From contig DAIENX010000038.1 of NCBI GenBank assembly GCA_027340875.1, positions 1-64,000 of the forward strand: a stretch of 64,000 bases of DNA, read 5' to 3'. Below the pieces are notes generated by a model, which was given only the letters and a program-made list of their open reading frames with translations, did not search any database and had not been told where the DNA came from. Position 1 is the first letter of the stretch; every line of letters starts with the position of its first letter. The translations under genes were made by a program, and so were the position numbers. Positions 22,432 to 56,373 of the stretch are shown here, one piece after another. This DNA comes from Elusimicrobiota bacterium. Its GTDB lineage: Bacteria; Elusimicrobiota; Elusimicrobia; Elusimicrobiales; UBA9959.

Positions 22432-22513
22432 GGGGTCAGGTCCTGGATCTTGACTTTCCCGCCGGCGGCCGCGTACACCGACGAACCGCGGTCAAGATTC
22501 AAGACCTGACCCC
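22432..22513. repeat. REP/REPIN-like intergenic inverted-repeat element
   Basis: ggggtcaggtcctggatcttgac (22432-22454) and gtcaagattcaagacctgacccc (22491-22513), 21/23 complementary; a third copy flanks the IS at 41745. Confidence 0.8.
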
Positions 22514-38112: not shown

Positions 38113-38964
38113 CTAAAGATCGAAAAGGCGGATCACCCGGCCGACCACATAAAAGAGGGCGGAATTGGCGGTTCTTTGCGAGACGGCGAAAGTCTGCGCG
38201 GAAGACAGGTTCGTGTCCATCACCGGGAAAGAATTCCTTAAAACCGCTGGGGCCGCGCGCACTACGCTCCTCCCGCCATATTCCACGGAACCGGCCGCGA
38301 CAAGCTTCTCCAGATAACCGCGCAGTACGCCTCGCAGTTCGGGCGCATTGTCGTCCAAACTGGGATATTCCATCATCTTGCCGGCCACCTTGGACTTGTA
38401 AAAACCCTTTTTTACTTCTTTCAGCAGTTTAACCCCGGCGAACTTCTCTAGGACTTCCTGTGCGACCGGCCTTTTTATCTCGAGTGCGAGGGCAAGCTGC
38501 TCCGCGGACCAGAGCCCGGTGTCGTTATTCAGCACCAGCGAACATTTATAGGTCTCGAAACTGGCCAGCATAGCGCGCATCTGGTCCGGGTTTAAATAGT
38601 ATTTGTTCGCCGCCAGGCTGCGCTCCAGGGCGTTGTGCACCGGGGAAAATCCGGCCGCCCCCGGCCCTGCGGAAACGAACGGCGCCAGTACATCCTGAAA
38701 GAATTCCCCGCCGCCCAAAGTTTTCAGCCAGGCGACGGCGAGCTCGTTGGCGGAGCCGGTTTTAGAGCGCAAGCGCAGCGCCACGAGCAAATTCCGCAGC
38801 CGGCCGGCTATCGGCAGGATCCTCCCCTGCTCCATCAGCAGATAATTGCGGTAAGACATCCCCAGCATGGCTTTGCCGCCGTTGTCGTGATAGAAACGGT
38901 AGGCCGTGGGGAAGCCCGCCTCCTCGCGCAGCCGGGTCAGCATGTCAGAAAACGGCGTTCCCAT
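38113..38964 (-). CDS. putative DNA-binding protein (N-terminal XRE-like HTH plus winged helix), paralog 1
   Basis: FSDMLTRLREEAGF...YLLMEQG; SAEQLALALEIKRPVAQEVLEKF wHTH; AAGGA RBS. Confidence 0.75.
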   Translation of the reverse strand: MGTPFSDMLTRLREEAGFPTAYRFYHDNGGKAMLGMSYRNYLLMEQGRILPIAGRLRNLLVALRLRSKTGSANELAVAWLKTLGGGEFFQDVLAPFVSAGPGAAGFSPVHNALERSLAANKYYLNPDQMRAMLASFETYKCSLVLNNDTGLWSAEQLALALEIKRPVAQEVLEKFAGVKLLKEVKKGFYKSKVAGKMMEYPSLDDNAPELRGVLRGYLEKLVAAGSVEYGGRSVVRAAPAVLRNSFPVMDTNLSSAQTFAVSQRTANSALFYVVGRVIRLFDL

Positions 38965-39009
38965 ATGCAGGTCCTTCCTTTAATTTCGACCGCGGCCCCT
39001 TGAACCGGG

Positions 39010-39834
39010 CTAAAAATCCAACAGCCGTAACACTTCGCCTGTCACCGAAAAGACGGCCGATCTTTCGGTCTTATCCGCCACGGCGCAACCGCGCGCGGAC
39101 GAGAGATTTGCCTCCAGGAACGGGTAAAAATCTCGCAGTTTTTCCGCGTCCGCGCGGATAATGCCGCTGCGCAGATATATGCAACTCCCGGAAGTCTCCA
39201 GTTTTGCCGCATATCCGTCCAGCTTTTCCTTCAGCGGGTGGCCGGCGGGCATCCAGGGATACTCCAGGGTCTTGCCGGAGAGCAGAGAGCGGTAAAGGCC
39301 TTTCCCGGCCCCTCTTGCCAGCTTGGCCTTTACGAGCAGCTTCAACGCTCTTTCCGCTGCCGGCTTCTTTATTTTCAACGCGACGGCAAGGCCGGCCGCA
39401 GACCAGGCCCCGGCGTCGCTATTCAGGATCAGGGCGCACTTGTAAGTATCGAAACCGGACAGCATAATGCGCAACTGCCCGGTGGTCAGGCAGTATTTCC
39501 CCTGGCAGGTGGACACCTGGGTCGGCGTCCTACTTCGGGCGGATAGAACCGGGGCCAGGACATGCGCATAAGCGTCCTCGCCGGCCATGGTCTTAAGCCA
39601 GGCGGTTATGAGTTCATATGCCTGCGGGCCTTTGGCATCCAGCCGAAGCGCCGCGATAAGTTTCTGAAGCCGTTCGGGGACCGGCAATATCCCGCCCTGT
39701 TCCATGCGCAGGTATTTGCCGTACGTCATCGTCAGCACCGGTCCGCCGCCGCTGTCGTGGTAAAACCTGTAGGCGGTCCGGAATCCGGCCCCGGTCCGGA
39801 ATTTCTTCAGCGCTTCCGAAAATATAGTTCCCAT
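39010..39834 (-). CDS. putative DNA-binding protein, paralog 2
   Basis: Aligns end to end with 38113-38964 (AGFxTAYRFYHDxGG, MEQGxILP, AWLKT, FxTYKC). Confidence 0.75.
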   Translation of the reverse strand: MGTIFSEALKKFRTGAGFRTAYRFYHDSGGGPVLTMTYGKYLRMEQGGILPVPERLQKLIAALRLDAKGPQAYELITAWLKTMAGEDAYAHVLAPVLSARSRTPTQVSTCQGKYCLTTGQLRIMLSGFDTYKCALILNSDAGAWSAAGLAVALKIKKPAAERALKLLVKAKLARGAGKGLYRSLLSGKTLEYPWMPAGHPLKEKLDGYAAKLETSGSCIYLRSGIIRADAEKLRDFYPFLEANLSSARGCAVADKTERSAVFSVTGEVLRLLDF

Positions 39835-40041
39835 AAACGCACCGTCTTTGGACGCAGAACTTGTCCGGCCCCGGCAGAGCCGCGGGAAGAACGCCTTGGC
39901 GGCGTGGCATCCCGGCCAGGGCGGTCCTTCCCCAACTATTTTACAATGATTCCAACATCTTCTATAACTGTCGCAGAAACTATTTGCCTTCGCAGTACAG
40001 TTTGCACATCCTGCGAAAGCCGGGGAACTGAAGTTTTCAGG

Positions 40042-40605
40042 CTAGTCGGCCGAAACCGTAAGCGTAAGGGAGACAAAGCTCTTGTCCGCCGCCCCGGCCG
40101 CATGCTCGAGGAAACTGTAGCGCTCCTCCACGAACACGGCGCTGGCCGGAACGCTGAACCGCACTGCGGAGCCGGCCACGGAACCCACGGGGATCCCCTT
40201 TACGGAAAGGTCCACGTTGCCGTCCTGATCCTTATCCACAAAGACGTCCAGCAGCATGGCCTGGCCGGTCCCGCGCCGCAGACTGCCGAAGCAGGGATTA
40301 TAAAGCCCGGCGCAGTTCACGCCCTTAACCCGGCCTCCCACCTTAAGGATGGAGACCTCTTCGTGCACAGCCTTGCCTGCGGCGGTACCAGACACCACCA
40401 GCTTGTCCGAAGGCAGCGAGTAGACCGCGTCCGCCAGAGGGATCAGTTTTTGCGAACCTTTGCCATACACGACCACGGGCGACGGCACGGCAGCCATGGG
40501 GATATTGGCTTCGGCCATGGAAGCCTGCAGTGATTCAATAGCCGGAGCCGCATAAGCTCCGCCTCCCGACCACAGCATTACCGCCGCTACCAGAATTCTC
40601 TTCAT
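40042..40605 (-). CDS. secreted hypothetical protein
   Basis: Signal peptide MKRILVAAVMLWSGGGAYA; AAGGAG RBS. Confidence 0.75.
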   Translation of the reverse strand: MKRILVAAVMLWSGGGAYAAPAIESLQASMAEANIPMAAVPSPVVVYGKGSQKLIPLADAVYSLPSDKLVVSGTAAGKAVHEEVSILKVGGRVKGVNCAGLYNPCFGSLRRGTGQAMLLDVFVDKDQDGNVDLSVKGIPVGSVAGSAVRFSVPASAVFVEERYSFLEHAAGAADKSFVSLTLTVSAD

Positions 40606-40949
40606 AGTTTTTCTCCTTAGTCTCCGTTATTCGCCGGTTTCCCCGGCCGCATATATAGGATACCCCGCCGCGCCGATATTCGCATGAGGCGGCGGACCCA
40701 GCGGGGTGGCGTATTTATGCTTACCGCTTTTGCCCGTCCGGCTTATAGCGGCGGACGGCGGCATATGGCGTTTTTGGTGATATGGAAGGGAACTATTCCA
40801 TGGGGAATTGGCATGGGGAATCTGGGTCACCCATTTAAGTGGCACCAGTCAAGGATAAAAATATTTCCGGCAGGAATCTTCAGATCCCCGCTGTGTTTTT
40901 TCCTCCGTTATCCAAATCTCCGCCATTGCCGATGTTTCTCGTTCAGGCC

Positions 40950-41135
40950 TCAGTCTCTGCTGTGCCAGTCACCCATCCGGATCAAAACTTGGCAGCTAAC
41001 ATCGCTATTACGCCCCTTCCCCGCAGCGTGGTCAGCAAAGATCGGGATAACGCCTAAATCAGGGCGGGACGGTTTTCCAATCAGGTCTAGTGGTTCTGCC
41101 ACCCATTTCTCCCGGGTTCGCCGTCCCGCCGAATC
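40950..41135 (-). ncRNA. putative IS1111 bridge RNA / seekRNA
   Basis: Non-coding region downstream of tnp; 10-bp stem 41063-72/41121-30 encloses target-matching AGACCTGA; a second loop holds donor-matching ATGGGTGA; ends are approximate. Confidence 0.65.
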
Positions 41136-41648
41136 TCACACAAAGACCCTTTGCGAATCGAATGCCACGCCGTAGCGCATTGTGAAATACTCGGCCCGGG
41201 CCAGCTTGTGCGCCAATGCGTTGTGCGCTATCATGGCTTTCGCGCGCTGTCGCTTGCGCTCGTAGAATTTCCTGGGTGCCTCATGATAGCGTCGATACCT
41301 TGCGGCAAGTTCTCTCGACGCGCCTTGATGTCATTGCACTGCGGCAAGATCGCAAGCCGCAGCATCTCGGGCAGCCAGAAGGGGTCGTGCCTGTCGTCGG
41401 CGTATTTCAGGCCGCTGTACTTCTGTATCTCTGCGGGATTGGCCAGGCGCACGTCATAGCCTTCCGCCATCGGCGCGTCCACCAGCCAATACCAGTTGTA
41501 GGTGGACTCGACGATCACGCCGGAAACAGCGCTTTTGTGCGGTTTCAGCGCGGCCAGGATCGCCGCTTCGTCGTTGGGCAGCTTCTTCTGGTAGACACGG
41601 CGGCCGGTTCCTGCTTGAATGCAGGTCTATACCTGTGTACAATTTCAT
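41136..41648 (-). pseudogene. IS110-family transposase/recombinase pseudogene (frameshifts plus internal deletion)
   Basis: MKLYTGIDLHS; IVESTYNWYWLVD...LANP...KYADDRHD; C-terminal FYERK...ALAHKLARA...F in a different frame. Confidence 0.9.
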
Positions 41649-41833
41649 GCGACACCTCCAAGGTTAAGATGGGAGTCTTTACCCTAAGAGCATACCAGAA
41701 CCTAATCCGTTCTGGTATGCTCGGAGGTGCCACTTATATGATTATCAGGTCTTGAATCTTGACATTTACGAAGTACAAAACGTTAACACTTTTTCCTTCC
41801 TACCTACTAAAGCAAAAAACGTAAAATATAAGA

Positions 41834-41866
41834 GTGAAGAAAGTCCACATCATCACGTTCGGATGA
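41834..41866 (+). pseudogene. miaB: 5' fragment of a methylthiotransferase (miaB-like) gene broken at the island boundary
   Basis: GTG-start MKKVHIITFG* in host-like codons matches the MiaB N-terminus (KxxIxTFGCQMN); sequence diverges at the Cys codon; only 10 codons to judge from. Confidence 0.6.
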
Positions 41867-42009
41867 CCTGTGGGGCCGGCTGTACCGGACGGTTTACAAA
41901 TACCTAGAAGCGACGTATGGATGATCTTACCCGCGAGATGTCGTCGCGGGCGTGGCCACTGCGCGGCCCCGCACCGCTCCTTGCCGCATGCCGCGAGATG
42001 CCGCTCGCG

Positions 42010-42123
42010 GGCTCGGCACTTCGCGCCTTCGCTCCGCTCGCTCGCCGCAGGGTGGCCGCTCGTCGGCCACTATGCGGCTCCCCGCTGTTAGGGGTTCGCC
42101 GGCTCGGCACTACGCGCCTTCGC
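42010..42123. repeat. 23-bp direct repeat in a structured non-coding region
   Basis: ggctcggcacttcgcgccttcgc (42010-32) and ggctcggcactacgcgccttcgc (42101-23), 22/23. Confidence 0.75.
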
Positions 42124-42479
42124 ACGGCTCCAGCAAGCGGAGTCCCGCACTTATAACAACCTCCTTCTGCGCGGCCGCCGGCCACATAAACAGTGGCCTT
42201 GGCGGGCCGCTCCCGGGCCGCTTCGCGGCCCGTACAGCGCAGAATTTAATTTTTTTCTTATTTTTAAATTATGGCCACCGGGGGAGGAGAATTTATACGG
42301 GGGCACCTTGGTTAATCAAAAACCCGCCCCGGCCTCGCGTTCGCTCGGCCCTGGCGGGCTTTTCTGTTAAGTTTATGTCGCCCCCGTGGGGCGGGGGAAA
42401 ACAGCAAAGAAAATATGGAGAGGCCAGGGCCAGTAGCCGCTGGCCACGTGGGGGCCGCGGCCCCTGGCCCTGGCCCTCT

Positions 42480-43004
42480 TTATCTCATAAAGAAAGCGAC
42501 TCCCAGAAGTAGCATCGCCCAGTTAATCGCAGTGACAGCCTTGCTCATCAGTCGCACAAAGTAGCCCTTGAGCCCGATTGGGAACCACTCGCCGCATTCG
42601 GGACAGCGATGAATAATCCAGTTGGGGGGCAAAGGCTTAGCGCACTTGTGGCATACGCGGGTATAGCAGGACGGCATTGAGGTCATAATCATATACGGCA
42701 TGTACATGGCAGGACCGAGGGCCACCAGCCAAAACCCCACGGCGGCAGCCACGCCGGCCAATAGGAGTTGTGGGTAAAGGCCTAACTTCGGGTGAACAAA
42801 TCCATGGACGGGTCCATCGTACTTACCCCACGTGAATAGCTCCACCAGCGCATCGGGAAGCACGGTTAGACCCGCTAGTATGCCGAAGCACACGAGAGCA
42901 AGCCCGGCGTAGAAAACAACATGGCCGGGGACCCGCGCTAGCCGCATTAGCGCATAACGGAACTCTCGTTTTGTCTCAAGATCCTCAAGAGTGTTCCCCC
43001 TCAT
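42480..43004 (-). CDS. membrane protein with zinc ribbon
   Basis: Three hydrophobic segments; CHKC...CPEC; AGGAGG RBS. Confidence 0.7.
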   Translation of the reverse strand: MRGNTLEDLETKREFRYALMRLARVPGHVVFYAGLALVCFGILAGLTVLPDALVELFTWGKYDGPVHGFVHPKLGLYPQLLLAGVAAAVGFWLVALGPAMYMPYMIMTSMPSCYTRVCHKCAKPLPPNWIIHRCPECGEWFPIGLKGYFVRLMSKAVTAINWAMLLLGVAFFMR

Positions 43005-43005
43005 A

Positions 43006-43374
43006 TCACAGCCTCCTCATACTGAGTCGATCGGCCCGCGCCAGCTTCTTTAGTAGAACAGTCCCGAGGTTTGGCTTCTTGCTCATTAGCGTCATCACGA
43101 GCTCTGCCGCATCGTTGGCGTCAAACGCTGCCAGAAACTCGTGCTCCGAGACGTTGTATTCTTTTGCGGCCATGAGGATGGCGGTATCTTCTGGGACATC
43201 GCCGGTCACGCATAACTCCTTTATCCTTTCTATCGCCTCACGGGTCACTACCGGTCGAGGCTCCTCGCTCCATATCCGGGAATAGATGTTCCTGTTTAGC
43301 CAAGGGAGCAGCTTCTTTTGGCCAATCCCCCAAAGCACCCATATAACAAAACCCACCCACAGCAAATAATGCAT
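43006..43374 (-). CDS. hypothetical protein with N-terminal TM
   Basis: Operon spacing (1-3 bp gaps); hydrophobic N-terminus. Confidence 0.65.
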   Translation of the reverse strand: MHYLLWVGFVIWVLWGIGQKKLLPWLNRNIYSRIWSEEPRPVVTREAIERIKELCVTGDVPEDTAILMAAKEYNVSEHEFLAAFDANDAAELVMTLMSKKPNLGTVLLKKLARADRLSMRRL

Positions 43375-43377
43375 ATC

Positions 43378-44010
43378 CTACCCCCGCTCGTCGTGCTTCT
43401 CTTTTCTCTCCGTGTTACTGATTGCGGTGTCGTACATTGCATTAAAAGTATCTTTGAATTCTTCGGTGGTCATGCGAACCTTGAAATGCTGCGTTATCAG
43501 GTGGTATGCGTTCGCGAGCGTAAAGGCCAACCCACCCACAATAGCGGTAAGTATCAAGTCTGCCCTGGTCCCCTTAAGCCTTTCCTCCTCAACCATCTCC
43601 CCAATAAGCACATTTTGCTTATGAACAAAGGCGTTTACAGTCGGCTTTATTCTATTGGCGTCGACGGTAGTATCCCGGTCTTTTGGGGCAGGCCAGGGCA
43701 TGGGTATCGCCTCGGCCAGAGCGGGGCCAGCGGTTTTTTTGTAGAAATCTTTAAACGGATTTAATGTCTCTTTCTGTTCGCGTCCTTGCTGTATTTTCGC
43801 AACCAACCCACGAACCATCTTTGCCAACAAAAGAGAGACTTCAGTAGTAAAGGCACTATCGTTCTTGCTCATTGTCCCCGCAACGAACAGGGATATACCA
43901 TTTAAAAAATGCTTTTCTTTCTCTGATATATCGCCGACAATCTCCAGGCGGACGGTTCTTGCGGTCGAGGTTTTCGTATTGCGAAGGTAGCGCATTTTCC
44001 CATCTGGCAT
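43378..44010 (-). CDS. hypothetical protein
   Basis: GGAGGG RBS before ATG at 44010; first gene of a 3-gene operon. Confidence 0.65.
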   Translation of the reverse strand: MPDGKMRYLRNTKTSTARTVRLEIVGDISEKEKHFLNGISLFVAGTMSKNDSAFTTEVSLLLAKMVRGLVAKIQQGREQKETLNPFKDFYKKTAGPALAEAIPMPWPAPKDRDTTVDANRIKPTVNAFVHKQNVLIGEMVEEERLKGTRADLILTAIVGGLAFTLANAYHLITQHFKVRMTTEEFKDTFNAMYDTAISNTERKEKHDERG

Positions 44011-45989: not shown

Positions 45990-47132
45990 ATGCATATAAC
46001 TTATCTCATCGGCGCCGGGGCTTCTTGCGCCATTGCGCCCAAAGATATTCCGGGGATGCAAATGTTTGCATCCATGGCCGCGTATTTTCCTAAAGAGATT
46101 GAGCAATTCAAAAAGCTCCTCGTAGAAGCCGGCATATACAAGGAATTTATCTATCCCGGGAACATAATCCGGCCCGGCAGGGCATCGCCGGAGAACATCT
46201 CGTCGTTGAATATCGAGAAACTTCTTCAAGAACTTGAAGATGTCGCATCTTGGGGCACGCACGATCAAGCAGCGGCAGCCGACTCCGCCCACAATCTTAT
46301 CCAGTCTTTACTTACCCGATTGTTTTCTCGCTTAAATTCCGATTTTGTTTCCAAAGCGGATAAGAACCCTTATGACCTTTTAGCTGCCGCCATCGCCGCA
46401 GACCGCCACGGGCACAAACACCATTTCATCTCATTCAACTATGACGTTTGGCTGGAACAGGCACTTCAACGCCACGGGCTCTGGAACCCCGTGAATGGCT
46501 ATTTATCAAATAGCGTCAATCCATTGCCTATTCGTTATATAGCAGCCGCACGGGCCCTTGAGCATTTGCCGTCAAACGAACCGTCGCCCACGCTTGTGCT
46601 AAAACCACACGGGTCACTTTCCTGGCTAACCCCGCAGGACGATCCCTACGGCATTCCGGCGATCCTCCTCGATAAAGACGGTTTAGCCCAAGGAGGAAAA
46701 CACACGGTCGGCACGCCAGAATACCTCCCGCCGGACAGCGATTGCGTTGAAATCATCCACCAATCCCAAAAGATGAAATTCTCACCGTTAATAATACCAC
46801 CGGTGCTGAATAAAGCTGTCGGAGGAGAATTCCTTTACAAAATCCATAAAGCGGTCCAGCGCGAATTCGAAAGCTCCGATGCCGTCGTAATTATTGGTTG
46901 GAGTATGCCGCCGACCGACGCCTCGATACGACAACGGATTGCTGATGGCCTTGCCCCTCGTAGTGATTCAAATAATCTTAAGTGGCTAATTGCCTGCAAT
47001 CTAATGAAAACCGATTTATTCTACAATCGCTACCGTGCGACCATTCCAGCCCAAAGAAGCTTAATGTATGACGATGGTTTTGGAAAAGGCTTCATTATGG
47101 CTGCGCTACAGCGCTTGTGGGAAAACAGATAA
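45990..47132 (+). CDS. SIR2-like (SIR2_2) domain protein
   Basis: LIGAGAS, FISFNYD, LKPHGSL, IIPP, IIGWS motifs. Confidence 0.82.
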   Translation: MHITYLIGAGASCAIAPKDIPGMQMFASMAAYFPKEIEQFKKLLVEAGIYKEFIYPGNIIRPGRASPENISSLNIEKLLQELEDVASWGTHDQAAAADSAHNLIQSLLTRLFSRLNSDFVSKADKNPYDLLAAAIAADRHGHKHHFISFNYDVWLEQALQRHGLWNPVNGYLSNSVNPLPIRYIAAARALEHLPSNEPSPTLVLKPHGSLSWLTPQDDPYGIPAILLDKDGLAQGGKHTVGTPEYLPPDSDCVEIIHQSQKMKFSPLIIPPVLNKAVGGEFLYKIHKAVQREFESSDAVVIIGWSMPPTDASIRQRIADGLAPRSDSNNLKWLIACNLMKTDLFYNRYRATIPAQRSLMYDDGFGKGFIMAALQRLWENR

Positions 47133-49256: not shown

Positions 49257-51788
49257 ATGGCAAAACTAACACTTCCTAAGCTTGAAACACATCTCTACAA
49301 AGCCGCCGACATCCTCCGCGGCACCATGGACCACTTCGAGTTCAAGGACTACATCTACGGGCTGCTCTTCCTCAAGCGCTGCTCGGATGTTTTCGAAGCC
49401 GAGCGCGAGACACTTATAAACGAAGCCCTGCGAAGCGGCAAAACCCAGAAGCAGGCCGAGAAGATTGCCGAGGACCCCTCACTGTATAATCTCTTCGTGC
49501 CGGAAAAGGCCTCCTGGGCCTACCTGCGCGACCATGTGCACAGCAATGTGGGCGACGGCCTTGTTAAAGCCCTCCGCACCCTGGAAGAGCACCCGCAGAA
49601 TATCAAGAAACTCAAGGATGTATTCTCCCAGGTGGATTTCACTAAGAAAAGCATTAAGGACGAAAAGTGGCGCGCCCTTATCAAGCATTTCGGAGATTAC
49701 CGCCTGCGCGACGAGGATTTTGACCACCCTGACCTGCTCGGCTCGGCTTACGAATACCTTGTGTACATGTTCGCCGAGACCTCCGGCAAAAAAGGCGGCG
49801 AGTTTTACACCCCGCGTTCCATAATTCCCATGCTGACACGCCTGGTAAAGCCCAAGCCCCGCATGCGCATTTACGACCCCTGCTGCGGCTCGGGCGGCAT
49901 GCTTATTTTCGCCAAGCAGTACGTGGACGAGAACGGCGGCGGCGGGGAAACCCTGTCCCTTAACGGCCAGGAGAGCAACGAAAGCGCCTACGCCATCTGC
50001 CGCATGAACATGATGCTGCACAACTCGGCCGACAGCGCGCGCATAGAGCACGGCGACACCCTGGCCGACCCGCACCACCTCGACGAGCGCGGCGAGCTTA
50101 TGCGCTTCGACCGCGTGATCTCCAACCCGCCTTTCAGCGGCAAGTATTCGCGCGACAAAATAAAATTCCCCGGGCGTTTCTCTTACGGCTATACGCCCAC
50201 TGCCGGCAAGAAGGCCGACCTTATGTTCGTGCAGCACATGCTGGCTGTGCTTAAGAGCGATGGCATGATGACCACCATATTGCCGCATGGCGCCCTTTTC
50301 CGCGGCCAGACCGAGGGAGAAATCCGCAAAGGTTTCCTGAAGGACGACCTGATAGAGGCCATCATAGGCCTGCCTGAAAAACTCTTCTACGGCACGGGCA
50401 TATCCGTCTGCGTGCTGGTAGCGCGGCCCAAAGGCACAAAGCCGCCGGAGCGCAAGAACAAAGTGCTCTTCATCAACGCCGACCGAGAGTACTTCGAAGG
50501 CCGGGCCATGAACTACCTCCAGCCCAAACACATAGAGAAGATCGTCACGGCATTCGAGCAGTACAAAGATATCCCCGGCTATTCCCGCGTGGTATCAATG
50601 AAAGACATAGAGGCCGAAGACTACAACCTCAATATCCGCCGCTATGTGGACAATACCCCGGCCGCGGAGCCGCACGACGGCCGCGCGCACATACACGGCG
50701 GCGCCCCGGAGAAAGAGGTGTGCGCTTTAACCCCACTGCTCGCGCCCTACAACATAAAGCCGGAGAAATATTTCGGCAAGAACGAAAAAGGCTATTTCCA
50801 GATACTAAAGGACTACGACAGCTGCGAAAAGATACTCAAGGCCTTCCAGTCCGAAGAGAACGTGAAGAAAGCCGAAACCGCTATCCTTGAGCATTACGCC
50901 AAATGGTCAGGGCAGGCAAAGAAGCGCTTGGCCGGCATAGATAAAACCAAGGACACGCACAAAGTCAGGGAGGAATTCGTTAAGTCTTTCGTGTCCGGCA
51001 TTGACGGCTCCGGCCTGCTGGACAAATTCACTTCGGTGGGTACGCTGGTGGGCTGGTGGGAAGGCAAGCCGCTGGAAGGGAACACACTTAAAGAAGACCT
51101 TAAGACCGTTATCTCCCACGGTTTCGGCGAGCTTGTGGCCGGCTGGCTGGATATGGTTAATTACCTCGCCTCCGACGAGGCGGAAAAAGACGACGGCGAC
51201 CCTTTCGCCCAGCCTCTGGTTAAGAAACTGATGCCGGAACAGTTGGCCGCTATAGAAGCCGCCCGTTCCGCCGCCGCCGAGCTGGACGCGCAGAAAAAAG
51301 CTTTCGAAGCCGGCGAGCCCGCCGAGGACGGCGAATGGGAAAAGGACGAGGAGTCCAAAGAAACCTATGATGAATTTCTCTCAACGGCGCTGAGAGAAGC
51401 GGAAGGCAGGGCAAAAAAAGGTGACAAGAAGGCCGCTGAGGAAGCGCAAGCCTTGCTGAAAAAGCTCGCCCCGTATGCCGAGATCAGCAAGAAGCTGCGA
51501 GCCGAGAAAAAACAGGTCAAAGAATTGAGCGCGGCATTGCTTAAAGAGCTCCCGAAAAAGGTGGACGGTCTGTCGCCTGAAAATAAAGTGTCGTTGGCGG
51601 TGGACATATTCTTCGACAACCTTCACGCGGATCTTTTAAAAGAAGTGGCCTCCCGGCGCCGCGCCGCCGGCAATGCCGTGGCCAACCTGGTGGAGAAGTA
51701 TGCCATGCCGCTTAAAGTTATAACCGACCAGCGCGATAAGGCCGCCAGGGAACTTGCCGGCTACCTCAAGGAGCTGGGGTATGAGTAA
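49257..51788 (+). CDS. hsdM: type I R-M system methyltransferase subunit (long C-terminal extension)
   Basis: [27 protein letters not shown]. Confidence 0.95.
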
Positions 51789-53049: not shown

Positions 53050-56000
53050 ATGACCGATATCCCCGAACTGCCGCCCGAAACCAGCACGCCCACCGAATGG
53101 TCCAAAGTAGAAAGGCCGCTGCTCATGCAGCTAGCCAAAATGGGCTGGAATATAATTATCGGCGACAACGACGTGCCCTACCTCACCAAGCGCGGCGACT
53201 TCCGGCAGGTAATACTTAAGCCCGACTTGGAAGAAGCGATTAAGAAGATCAACACCGGCATCACGCCTATAGAAATAGAACGCGCAATAATAAAACTCAC
53301 CGCCCCGCAGGGTCGCACCCTCATGGAGAAGAACCGCCAATTCCATGAACTGCTGCTCAAGGGCGTGTATATAACCCCCGAAACCGGCACCCGCCAGAAA
53401 AATGTGAAGTTCATGGATTTCGGCACTCTTGAGAACAACTCGTTCAACGCCATAAACCAGTTCCGCGTAGAAACCGACACCGGCCCTGCCATAATCCCGG
53501 ACATAATGCTTTTCATCAACGGCCTGCCGGTGGGCATAATAGAATGCAAAGCCGCGGACCTCCCGGAACCCATGGAGGAAGCCATAGACCAGATGCTGCG
53601 CTATTCCAGCCAGCGGCATTGGGTGGGGGAACCCGAAGGGCGCGAAGACCTTTTTGTCTACAACCAGGTAATGGTGGCCGCAAGCTTTTATAAAGCCCTG
53701 GTCGGGGCAGTAGGCGCGCAGGAGGACGAATACCAGGAGTGGAAAGACACCACGCCCCGCACGCCGGAAGAAGTTGCGGCTGAACTTGGCAAAGAGGGGA
53801 AGATTAAGGCCCAGGAAATTCTGGCCGCCGGCGTTTTAAGGCCGGCCAACCTGCTGGACATAATACAGAACTTCATAATCTTCGACCATTCCGAAGGCCG
53901 CATCAAGAAAGTTATCCCGCGCTACCAGCAGTACCGGGCGGTGGACAAAGCTGTAAACAAGCTCCTAACCTTCACCGGCCCCGCCGGGTCAGAACTAATC
54001 GACAGGCGAGGCGGCGTAATAGGCCACACGCAGGGCTCGGGCAAGAGCATCACCATGGTGTACCTGATACGCAAGATGCGCAACCTGCACGAGCTTCAGC
54101 CGTTCAAGGTAGTTGTTGTAACCGACCGCACCCATTTGGAAGGCCAGCTGCGGGATACTGCAGCCCTTACCGGCGGCCTGATACGCCCGGATGATAATGA
54201 TTCCCGCCTTGGCAAATCCGACACGGACGTGCTCCTTGCAATATTAAAGCAGGAATCCCCCGACGTGGTATTCGCCATGATACAGAAGTACCTGGTGCGC
54301 GACCCCGACGCCGAGGTGCTGGAATATAAACTGCCGGAAAAAGTCGTGGGGCGCGATAAACTCACCGAAGATGAGCGCGTAATGCGCCAGAGGCTGGAAT
54401 CCCCCGAACCCTTCCCCGTGCTGAACAAGTCGGGCCGGATCCTGCTGCTGGTAGATGAATGCCACCGCACCCACACCAGCGTGCTGCACGCCAACCTGCG
54501 CCAGGCGCTGCCCAACGCCATTATAATGGGCTTCAGCGGCACGCCCATAATGAACAACGAGGCCAACGATACCCGCCGCATCTTCGGCGAGATACTGGAC
54601 TCGTACCCGCTGCAGCAGGCCGTTGAGGATAAGGCCACCGTGCCCATCGTCTACGAGGGCAGAACGGCCGAAGGCGCGGTAGAAAGCGCCAGCCAGTTGG
54701 ACGCTAAATTCGAGGACATGTTCAAGGACAAGACCGACCGCGAAATACAGGCGATAAAAGCCAAGTATGCCACGCAGGACGACGTGCTTGAAGCCACAAA
54801 ACTTATTGCAGCCAAAGCTCGGGACATGCTGCTCCATTATGTCACCACTGTAATGCCCAGCGGCTTTAAAGCTCAACTGGTGGCGGTCTCCCGTAAGGCC
54901 GCGGTGATGTACCAGGCAGAACTGCTGGCCGCCCGTGCCGAACTGGTGGCCGAATTGGAAGCTGTCCCTGCGGCAATCCGCGCGCTGCCGGCGGAAGAGC
55001 TTGAAAAACAGCCGCAGCGTACGCAGTTACTGGTGCGGGCGCACAAGCACCTGGCGCTTATAAAGGAACTTGAATTTGCCGCGGTTGTATCCGGAGTTCA
55101 CAACGACCCCGGCCCCTGGCGGCAATGGAGCGATTCCGCCAAGAGGGACGCAAACATAGCCAGGTTCAAGAAGCCGCTTTTCCATAAAGAACCGGCCAGG
55201 CGCGACGCTCTGGCCTTCCTCTGCGTAAAGAACATGCTGCTTACCGGCTTCGACGCCCCCGTGGAGCAGGTGCTTTACCTGGACCGGACCATAAAAGGCC
55301 ACGAGCTTCTGCAGGCTATCGCCCGCGTAAATCGCCGTGCGGCAAATAAATCCTGCGGCTATGTGGTGGATTACGTCGGGATAACCCGCCACCTGGACGC
55401 CGCGCTGGAAGGCTATAAGGCCGGAGATATAGACGGTGCGCTGGTGGACATAACCGCGGAACTTCCGCTGCTAAGGGACAGGCACCAGGCCGTCATTGAC
55501 CTTTTTAAGGCTAACGGCATTGCGGACATCCGCGACACCGAGAAGTGTGTGGACCTGCTGGAAAACAAAAAGATCAGGGCGGAGTTCATAAACAAGGCCA
55601 AAGAGTTTTACCTGAGCCTGAACATAATACTGCCCCGCCCCGAGGCGCTTAAATACATACGGGACGCCAAGATAATAGGCTTCATCGCCCGCGTGGCTGC
55701 CGTGGTTTACCGCGAAGAAGCGCTTAACCTGTTGGGCGCCGAACGCAAGGTTAAGGCTCTTATAGACGAATACATGACGGCCACCGGCATGGCGCAGAAG
55801 ATTGCGCCCATAGCCATCACCGACGCCAAGTTCGCGGAGATAGTGGCCGCACTGGGCTCGGCAAAGAGCCGGGCCAAGGCAATGGCTCACGCCGCGCGCT
55901 ATCATATTACCACGGGCATGGGCGAAGACCCCGCCTACTACAGGAAGTTAAGCGAAAGGCTGGAGGAGATACTCGCCGAGTTTAAGGACAACTGGGTAGA

Positions 56001-56373
56001 GCTGGAGGCGGCGCTCCGCAAATACATCGCTGAAGAGCTGCTGAAAGGGCGCACCGAATCCGTGGCCGGACTGGACCCTAAAACCCATGTTCCCTTCTAT
56101 GCACTTCTTAAAGAAGAGGCAGAAAGGACCACGGGCATGATAGGGGAAGTCAGCAAGATTGCCGCCGTCACCAAAGAAATAGTGGATAAGATAAAGGAAG
56201 CGATCAGCGCGGCTGATTTCTGGACGCATCCGCTGCAGCGGCAGCAGCTTGAGACGGCGCTTAACCGGCACCTGGCGATGGGGGAATTACCAGTAAGCAC
56301 CGAGCGCAGGCAGGAACTGGTTACGCGGCTGGTAGATGTGGCTAAAAGGCTGCACACTAAACTTGTGCAATGA
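53050..56373 (+). CDS. hsdR: type I R-M system restriction subunit
   Basis: PD...INGLP...ECK nuclease, HTQGSGKS, VDECHR, LLTGFDAP, LQAIARVNR. Confidence 0.95.
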   Translation: MTDIPELPPETSTPTEWSKVERPLLMQLAKMGWNIIIGDNDVPYLTKRGDFRQVILKPDLEEAIKKINTGITPIEIERAIIKLTAPQGRTLMEKNRQFHELLLKGVYITPETGTRQKNVKFMDFGTLENNSFNAINQFRVETDTGPAIIPDIMLFINGLPVGIIECKAADLPEPMEEAIDQMLRYSSQRHWVGEPEGREDLFVYNQVMVAASFYKALVGAVGAQEDEYQEWKDTTPRTPEEVAAELGKEGKIKAQEILAAGVLRPANLLDIIQNFIIFDHSEGRIKKVIPRYQQYRAVDKAVNKLLTFTGPAGSELIDRRGGVIGHTQGSGKSITMVYLIRKMRNLHELQPFKVVVVTDRTHLEGQLRDTAALTGGLIRPDDNDSRLGKSDTDVLLAILKQESPDVVFAMIQKYLVRDPDAEVLEYKLPEKVVGRDKLTEDERVMRQRLESPEPFPVLNKSGRILLLVDECHRTHTSVLHANLRQALPNAIIMGFSGTPIMNNEANDTRRIFGEILDSYPLQQAVEDKATVPIVYEGRTAEGAVESASQLDAKFEDMFKDKTDREIQAIKAKYATQDDVLEATKLIAAKARDMLLHYVTTVMPSGFKAQLVAVSRKAAVMYQAELLAARAELVAELEAVPAAIRALPAEELEKQPQRTQLLVRAHKHLALIKELEFAAVVSGVHNDPGPWRQWSDSAKRDANIARFKKPLFHKEPARRDALAFLCVKNMLLTGFDAPVEQVLYLDRTIKGHELLQAIARVNRRAANKSCGYVVDYVGITRHLDAALEGYKAGDIDGALVDITAELPLLRDRHQAVIDLFKANGIADIRDTEKCVDLLENKKIRAEFINKAKEFYLSLNIILPRPEALKYIRDAKIIGFIARVAAVVYREEALNLLGAERKVKALIDEYMTATGMAQKIAPIAITDAKFAEIVAALGSAKSRAKAMAHAARYHITTGMGEDPAYYRKLSERLEEILAEFKDNWVELEAALRKYIAEELLKGRTESVAGLDPKTHVPFYALLKEEAERTTGMIGEVSKIAAVTKEIVDKIKEAISAADFWTHPLQRQQLETALNRHLAMGELPVSTERRQELVTRLVDVAKRLHTKLVQ

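Follow-up and report, generated by a model that had tools for sequence, protein, structure and literature searches.

The window analysed here is the whole 64,000-nucleotide stretch of DNA from an Elusimicrobiota bacterium, and at 40830-41745 it holds a dead element of the IS110 family, which we place in an ISGsu4-like clade with an IS1111-type layout and which is flanked by two TG cores. The element and all of its features described below are read on the minus strand. Element and short flanks together measure 938 nt in the window, compared with 1537 nt in the relative L019. The core at the left junction (41746-41747) forms part of TG-ATAATCAT, the left junction of most relatives, whilst at the right junction (40828-40829) the relatives read AATGGG-TG, followed by variable flanks. 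The sub-terminal inverted repeats that had been proposed for the element were recovered at 41726-41740 on the left and 40832-40846 on the right, with 41740-41726 agreeing with 40846-40832 at 14 of 15 positions, and the right repeat is kept in relatives. If the repeat is counted as 15 bp the terminal extensions are 7 bases on the left and 2 on the right, and if it is counted as 14 bp they are 8 and 3; the rule for the IS1111 group, as given in the available text of PMC11187229, is 7 bp left and 3 bp right. A separate inverted repeat in the left end (41688-41722) sits upstream of the tnp ribosome-binding site and is kept in L019. Further along the window, on the plus strand, 45990-47132, 49257-51788 and 53050-56373 hold hsdM and hsdR of a type I restriction-modification system (NCBIfam) and a 380-aa ORF that has no NCBIfam match and whose motifs recall what we take to be a SIR2-like domain, so that a defence island probably lies near the element. 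A pair of neighbouring paralogous ORFs (38113-38964 and 39010-39834, minus strand), one of 283 aa and the other of 274 aa, is also without an NCBIfam match.

The tnp remnant (41136-41648) keeps 513 of 1020 nt when compared with the intact homologue P0002. The frame is broken from about codon 12 onwards by a 23-nt deletion near 41610, and two further stretches are missing, residues 112-156 and approximately residues 167-281. The second of these contained the counterpart of the IS621 catalytic serine; in P0002 it is S258 that lines up with the serine in the SG motif of IS621. Three intact 339-aa proteins, P0001-P0003, are 92-95% identical to the remnant and carry both Pfam domains of the IS110 family (DEDD RuvC and PF02371), of which the window has remnants only, and P0002 scores 176.8 on NF033542 against a cut-off of 140. 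Searches of the 92%-complete assembly with both Pfam families, and by tblastn with P0002, found no intact IS110 gene beside the remnant, and the assembly holds no second copy of the dead element, although repeats often assemble poorly. The lesions in tnp are present in reads, since contigs from the sequencing runs X1 and X2, which may be the source samples, span the deletion joints and a 2-nt insertion discussed below without differences. A near-identical allele that retains the tnp segments missing from the window occurs in X1, X2 and X5, the last of which belongs to another study, and its depth was 12.7-16.5 in X1 and 15-24.8 in X2, against about 8-15 for the window allele. There was no RNA dataset among the sequencing runs listed.

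Taking the element out restores a member of a genomic repeat, with TG found at both junctions. The left target flank (41748-41766) lies within a 22-bp repeat and its final 5 nt, AGACC, match the left guide of the target-binding loop, whilst the right target flank, ACCCA (40823-40827), is complementary to the guide TGGGT. A REP-like target had been claimed, and this is upheld by 22 further copies of the restored site in the assembly at four or fewer mismatches, some of them in inverted pairs; the repeat is short, imperfectly palindromic and multi-copy, as are REP/REPIN sequences, and the inverted pairs on contigs C1, C4 and C11 fold as long hairpins. Of the 11-mer target word the assembly has 19 occurrences, where 1.6 would be expected. 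The 12-mer variant that fits the guide TGGGT has no other copies in the assembly, where 17 copies end in CCCC. Within the window an inverted pair of the repeat (22436-22509) forms a long hairpin between genes, and elsewhere (G000:C69:26515-34750) there are eight direct copies, most of them followed by a terminator-like hairpin, where the repeat ends in TTGACA. The sole Y1 (RAYT-like) transposase gene of the assembly (G000:C111:16347-16682) is adjoined by its own, different palindromic repeat. A RAYT-like match was found at 5 of 63 loci with this target type versus 1 of 59 other loci. Adjoining the element itself, a G+C-rich run of short self-similar palindromic repeats (41940-42240) makes up a second repeat family.

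With respect to its family, the element is, judged by its sequence, a member of the ISGsu4-like clade of IS110 that works like IS1111. The original prediction had called it IS1111, and this holds for the layout, with its sub-terminal repeats and downstream guide, but not for the transposase, which is ISGsu4-like rather than of the IS1111 clade proper. P0002 is without the GL-P----S(t)G motif and has CRKVSTRWLSND, and a homologue at 48% identity to it, annotated as an 'ISGsu4 family transposase', has the same ends and both of the loops described below. ISGsu4, the nearest named element, shares about 15-22% identity with IS1111-type proteins, and it is by way of ISGsu4 that P0002 is placed outside IS1111, the likeness of ISGsu4 to P0002 resting on comparison by eye. 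In the accessible source data of PMC11187229 ISGsu4 is filed as IS110, and in the part of Durrant's supplementary table (PMC11208160) available to us it shares one row with ISGsu5, ISShfr7 and ISShwo5, a group for whose RNA we found no description in the literature. The right end has a median length of 433 nt among 126 elements and the left end measures about 75-100 nt. In both loops the right guide is placed 5' of the left guide, which is the IS1111 rule that the top-strand match lies 5' of the bottom-strand match. The ten commonest organisms of 1584 plasmid matches at E <= 10 include no Enterobacterales genus, the right end of L019 has no match in E. coli genomes, and an Rfam scan of 39000-44000 returned two microRNA matches only, far under the cut-off and ascribed to chance.

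Downstream of tnp lies loop 1, the target-binding loop (41063-41130), whose outer stem, 41130-41121 with 41072-41063, pairs perfectly over the 10 bp that had been proposed. Within it are the right guide TGGGT (41105-41101), found where it had been claimed, an inner hairpin (41101-41091), the left guide (41088-41084), the core (41083-41082) and two handshake bases, AT (41081-41080). The target-guide 8-mer of the original prediction, AGACCTGA, is present at 41088-41081 and again at the flank (41752-41745), and its donor-guide 8-mer, ATGGGTGA, at 40976-40969 and again at the element end (40834-40827); in dinucleotide shuffles of the right end these matches arose singly in 26 and 21 of 3000 cases, and both together in none. 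Every coordinate in that prediction could be reproduced, and folding of the guide region, which it had put forward as a check, gave a z of -2.58, with 1 of 200 shuffles folding equally well. The 2-nt insertion mentioned above falls inside loop 1, at 41108-41109, and is missing from the near-identical allele.

The search with P0002 yielded at least 160 loci, a further 9 came from congeneric genomes, and loop sequence was compared with insertion site among these relatives. Loop 1 was parsed in 143 elements, window included, among the matches listed. The set used for statistics comprised 84 elements with both flanks and a protein of more than 250 aa; the window was left out, and L127, L178, L114, L010, L088, L155 and L165 were dropped as mis-parsed junctions. 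A strict pattern parsed loop 2, the second target-type loop considered below, in 67 of the 84, and these were reduced to 40 representatives below 80% protein identity. Across the representatives loop 1 matched the flanks at 9.0 of 10 bases, compared with 4.9 when shuffled, with 4.47 of 5 on the left (shuffled 2.00) and 4.53 of 5 on the right (2.89); 0 of 2000 shuffles did as well, a test which overstates significance when applied across related elements. The match extends 5 nt to the left and up to 7 nt to the right. When independent pairs were drawn from a protein tree (a quick IQ-TREE), loop 1 tracked the flank in about 10 of 11 pairs for one trait (p 0.002) and in about 4 of 5 for another (p 0.125). 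The original prediction had staked itself on this relationship, and loop 1 does track the site; these comparisons show loop 1 to be the module that, by its sequence, would choose where the element inserts.

RNAalifold recovered 3 outer pairs only from the loop-1 alignment, because of misalignment, whilst a search sequence by sequence, run without a shuffled control, recovered a loop-1 helix with 7 or more pairs in 138 of 143 elements. Several relatives carry more than one such structure. The right ends of L071/L072, L091 and L010 have two full loop-1 copies plus loop 2, making three target-type loops. In L010 the first copy fits the left flank and the second fits the right flank, which may reflect two targets, a rearrangement involving both copies or a chimeric assembly. 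In L174, L176, L086 and L078 an additional hairpin or spacer comes before loop 1, within the first 130 nt past tnp, and in the first three of these the hairpin has a loop-1-like outer stem that is degraded inside, which suggests retargeting by duplication and decay.

The core had been given as TGA/TCA, and here the prediction did not stand: the core of the family is TG, 2 nt in length, as TG-AT is also kept in the target loop of relatives with a right flank that begins with a base other than A. A three-base TGA core was rejected as a family rule, given that the right flanks of many relatives begin with C or T. If the flank begins with A, the right guide is shifted onwards by one base, and a functional three-base core is possible in that subgroup. 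The register of the loop 1 right guide is set by the first flank base, in that the guide ends in T if the flank begins with A (49 of 51) and in C, pairing with the core G, if it begins with C or T (27 of 33). Four relatives (L020-L023) have a left end with one additional base past the core relative to the family. In L032, L029, L144, L148, L151, L142, L055 and L171 roughly the final 14 bases of the right end are repeated in tandem, and these right junctions look as if the end had served as a target or been copied twice.

The two bases that follow each core show a further regularity. In 78 of 84 elements those of loop 1 are identical to the two bases with which the left end begins, and in 77 of 81 those of the donor guide are identical to the opening two bases of the right flank. 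The latter agreement spans AC, TC, CT, CC, CA, TA and TT, and it held in 4 of 5 pairs on the tree (p 0.125). According to the parts of PMC11208158 and PMC13626964 available to us, IS621 has cross-pairing handshake guides that come after its right guides and favour insertion over excision. The position found here, after the left guides, is the mirror image, as would be expected from the reversed guide order, and we infer that the two bases past each core act as handshake guides mirrored relative to IS621. If this is the case, the mirrored handshake would predict, for elements whose RNA lies downstream, which of the strands is the first to be exchanged.

The donor side is less simple. The left-donor guide, ATGGG followed by core TG and handshake AC (40968-40976), in which AC equals the first two bases of the right flank, agrees with the element end in 78 of 81 elements. 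The original prediction had put a donor guide into a second loop, and the guide does match the element end, but it resides in a multi-branch domain rather than a simple loop. Folds indicate that this multi-loop is closed by a long-range stem, with approximate limits at 40907-41056, in which GTTATC...ATCTTTGC pairs with GCGGAGAT...GATAAC; the stem is still present in the window and its motifs are conserved in relatives. We considered GTTATC past loop 1 as a right-donor guide and ruled it out, as it pairs with GATAAC of the long-range stem. Another candidate, GATTTT-C-TGG, is built like a right guide and agrees with the donor at 5 of 6 bases, but it does not follow donor variants.

Part of this domain has been lost from the dead copy. 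Set against the right end of L019 (83% to P0002), the window is short by 90 nt near 41028, and the deletion, whose joint we place approximately at 41028-41029, took out a target-type loop, loop 2, together with the candidate right-donor guide. Loop 1 and the donor guide are consequently 106 nt apart in the window, versus at least 184 nt in the other 128 elements, and the right end, at 308 nt versus 379-636 nt in 125 relatives, is the shortest of the 126. Among the matches listed no contig spans the 90-nt joint of the window allele, and a joint at 40990/41022 in X1, X2 and X5 fits, by arithmetic, an allele with about 90 more bases. Survival of the guide RNA had been claimed and is contradicted by the 90-nt deletion, the 2-nt insertion in loop 1 and scattered substitutions: as read from its sequence, the guide RNA of the dead copy decays along with tnp.

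The ends of the element have fared better. A -35-like hexamer, TTGACT (40847-40852), and a -10-like GATAAT (41746-41741) would form a putative circle-junction promoter with a spacer of 18; of 118 elements, the one in the window among them, 112 have TTGAC close to their right end, and in 98 its distance gives a spacer of 17-18. By analogy with what is described in the accessible text of PMC11187229, the hexamer pair appears to be the junction promoter in the circle; a promoter and terminator scan yielded nothing exceeding chance. Mini-elements were moved with RNA supplied separately in the work reported there, and the dead copy could move as cargo, because its ends, cores, flanks and junction-promoter hexamers are intact. 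It had also been proposed that the guide RNA is preserved and functional and that the element is a non-autonomous one mobilised in trans. Such movement is possible, and the intact loop 1 and left-donor guide, alongside the intact ends, speak for it, as does the near-identical allele in X1 and X2 that retains the tnp segments missing here; from the available portions of the literature, a short target-loop RNA sufficed for ISEc11 (PMC11187229) and a non-autonomous ISPpu9 module circularises (PMC12288879). There is no sign that it has taken place, however: in the 92%-complete assembly the element occurs once and an intact IS110 gene was not found, and the deleted 90 nt belong to a module that nearly all relatives keep, quite apart from the insertion in loop 1 and the substitutions. 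We therefore regard a preserved RNA and mobilisation in trans as very unlikely. The dead copy itself is ordinary; its family is less so.

In all 44 of the relatives that were aligned, a second unit lies about 90-115 nt past loop 1. This loop 2 has the build of loop 1, with a right guide, a TGG...CCA hairpin, a left guide and TG, and its stem covaries, with 7 of 12 outer pairs changing on both sides and 0 of 500 shuffles reaching the score. A model made from 50 copies was searched against 94 of about 185 loci and matched 88 of 93 held-out loci at E <= 0.002; L180 was found at E 0.28, L077, L116, L182 and L183 were missed, and there was no match in the window or the assembly. By eye, two units can be recognised in L182, L183 and L190 (34% identity) and the pattern is absent in L187, L188 and L189 (27-31% identity). 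Conservation of the second target loop spans 95% to 34% protein identity. In folds of single sequences, loop 2 branches off within the long-range stem, which encloses the donor guide as well.

Loop 2 also resembles the target. It matches the flanks near the core at 7.2 of 10 bases, compared with 4.9 when shuffled (left 3.62 of 5 against 2.05, right 3.58 of 5 against 2.81; 0 of 2000 shuffles), and the match also holds in 17 retargeted lineages and in 21 representatives below 70% identity. The bases past its core equal the left end in 7 of 67 elements and the right flank in 1 of 67, so that loop 2 is without a handshake; the idea that these bases form an excision handshake to the right flank was ruled out by the latter count. 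At positions where the two loops differ, loop 1 matches the site at 39 and loop 2 at 5. It may be that loop 2 is a second insertion guide, which widens the target range or acts as a back-up during loop 1 retargeting. In 4 of the 67 elements it is the better fit to the site, in 8 the two loops fit equally well, and spare loops do arise, both as additional loop-1 copies (L071/L072, L091, L010) and as a decayed first hairpin (L174, L176, L086, L078). Against this, loop 2 is without the insertion-driving handshake, it is situated inside the donor domain, and loop 1 gives the better fit at 55 of the 67 sites, which leads us to see a second insertion guide as unlikely.

On the tree, loop 2 tracks the flank in 1-3 of 3-8 independent pairs per trait, none of them significant, and the opposite direction is seldom seen (0.0-0.3 pairs on average). 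This weak tracking would suit an old duplicate with a structural or protein-binding part, whose likeness to the target stems from ancestry or from occasional copying from loop 1, and in L104, L121 and L119 loop 2 keeps the commonest target of the clade where loop 1 has moved, as it often does. Yet the likeness between the two loops is found mainly at the target-pairing positions (z 2.6-7), extends to position -7 (z 3.3), and is absent from the inner hairpin loop (z -1.3 to -0.2) and from the bases past the core (0 of 40 identical), and the guides of loop 2 differ by clade and fit distinct targets (GGAC, GAAGC, TAGC, TGGC). We consider a relic of this kind improbable, and give no greater weight to loop 2 having some job other than a relic, a back-up guide or a helper in leaving the site.

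Taken as a whole, the locus is probably best explained as a dead ISGsu4-like copy in a REP-like repeat, from a clade whose guide RNA has three modules and of which loop 2 has been lost here. In the mechanism that we propose, the junction promoter of the circle would transcribe tnp and the guide RNA, and loop 1, a free-standing target loop, would select the site by 5 nt on the left and up to 7 nt on the right. In intact relatives loop 2 is a second target-type loop nested in the donor multi-loop, and the donor guide is the third module. The handshake bases would pair only after strand exchange and so drive insertion. Loop 2 would bind the same recombinase and pair with the same target bases, without a handshake, and could hold the target flanks while the integrated element leaves by excision or is copied out as a circle; this role is proposed because the handshake of loop 1 would oppose the excision step. 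The dead copy would be movable only as cargo, by the protein and RNA of an intact copy.

What is known of excision bears on this from two sides, and in the accessible parts of the 2025-2026 papers excision in the IS110 family is still debated. For IS621, handshake pairing favours insertion and opposes excision (PMC13626964, available text), and a preprint reports, in its abstract, that donor recognition is all that excision requires, so that a target loop would have no part to play in that step. ISEc11 circles, on the other hand, needed target flanks, according to the available text of PMC11187229. We hold it possible, if short of an even chance, that the job of loop 2 is to help in excision or copy-out; the broader proposal, that throughout a widespread ISGsu4-like clade loop 1 inserts with a handshake and the handshake-less loop 2 excises or copies out, is more doubtful still. 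If true, it would represent an RNA-level answer to the disfavoured excision step, and a part that could be used for steering direction in bridge editing.

In its three modules this RNA is new relative to the described bridge and seek RNAs, which have one target loop. No RNA with two target loops is described in the freely accessible literature covered, which includes text of PMC11187229, PMC11208160, PMC11208158, PMC13626964, PMC13604230 and PMC12288879, nor in the available parts of 10.1101/2025.05.14.653916, 10.1101/2025.10.25.684509 and 10.64898/2026.08.31.748434. The same is true of the text of 10.64898/2026.10.21.760802, whose Fig. S12 and 86 RNA models may show such a layout.

The comparison with known systems can be drawn as far as the available portions of the respective papers allow. 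The dead copy resembles MITEPpu9/ssr9 of ISPpu9 (PMC12288879) in being an IS110-type unit without a transposase, with intact ends and in a REP, but that unit has several copies and detected circles, whereas here there is a single decayed copy; several copies would be expected of a MITE-like derivative and the 92%-complete assembly has one only. With the IS1111 seekRNAs of ISEc11, ISPa11 and ISKpn4 (Siddiquee et al. 2024, PMC11187229) the clade shares sub-terminal repeats, a guide downstream of tnp, a 339-aa transposase, the order in which the top-strand match comes first, and insertion at a fixed site. It differs from them in a transposase without GL-P----S(t)G and in a right end of about 400-600 nt with two target loops, where PMC11187229 describes one match pair. 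The IS621 bridge RNA (Durrant 2024, PMC11208160; Hiraizumi 2024, PMC11208158; PMC13626964) likewise has an internal loop in which two guide strands surround a small hairpin, a 2-nt core, a separate donor guide, handshake bases that pair with the other partner once exchange has taken place, and REP targeting. Unlike that of IS621, the RNA of this clade is downstream and mirrored, with the handshake after the left guides, and its donor guide lies within a multi-loop, a feature noted for IS1111 in Durrant (PMC11208160). No covarying right-donor guide was found in the clade, which also sets it apart from IS621, and where IS621 has two guide modules, the RNA of this clade has three.
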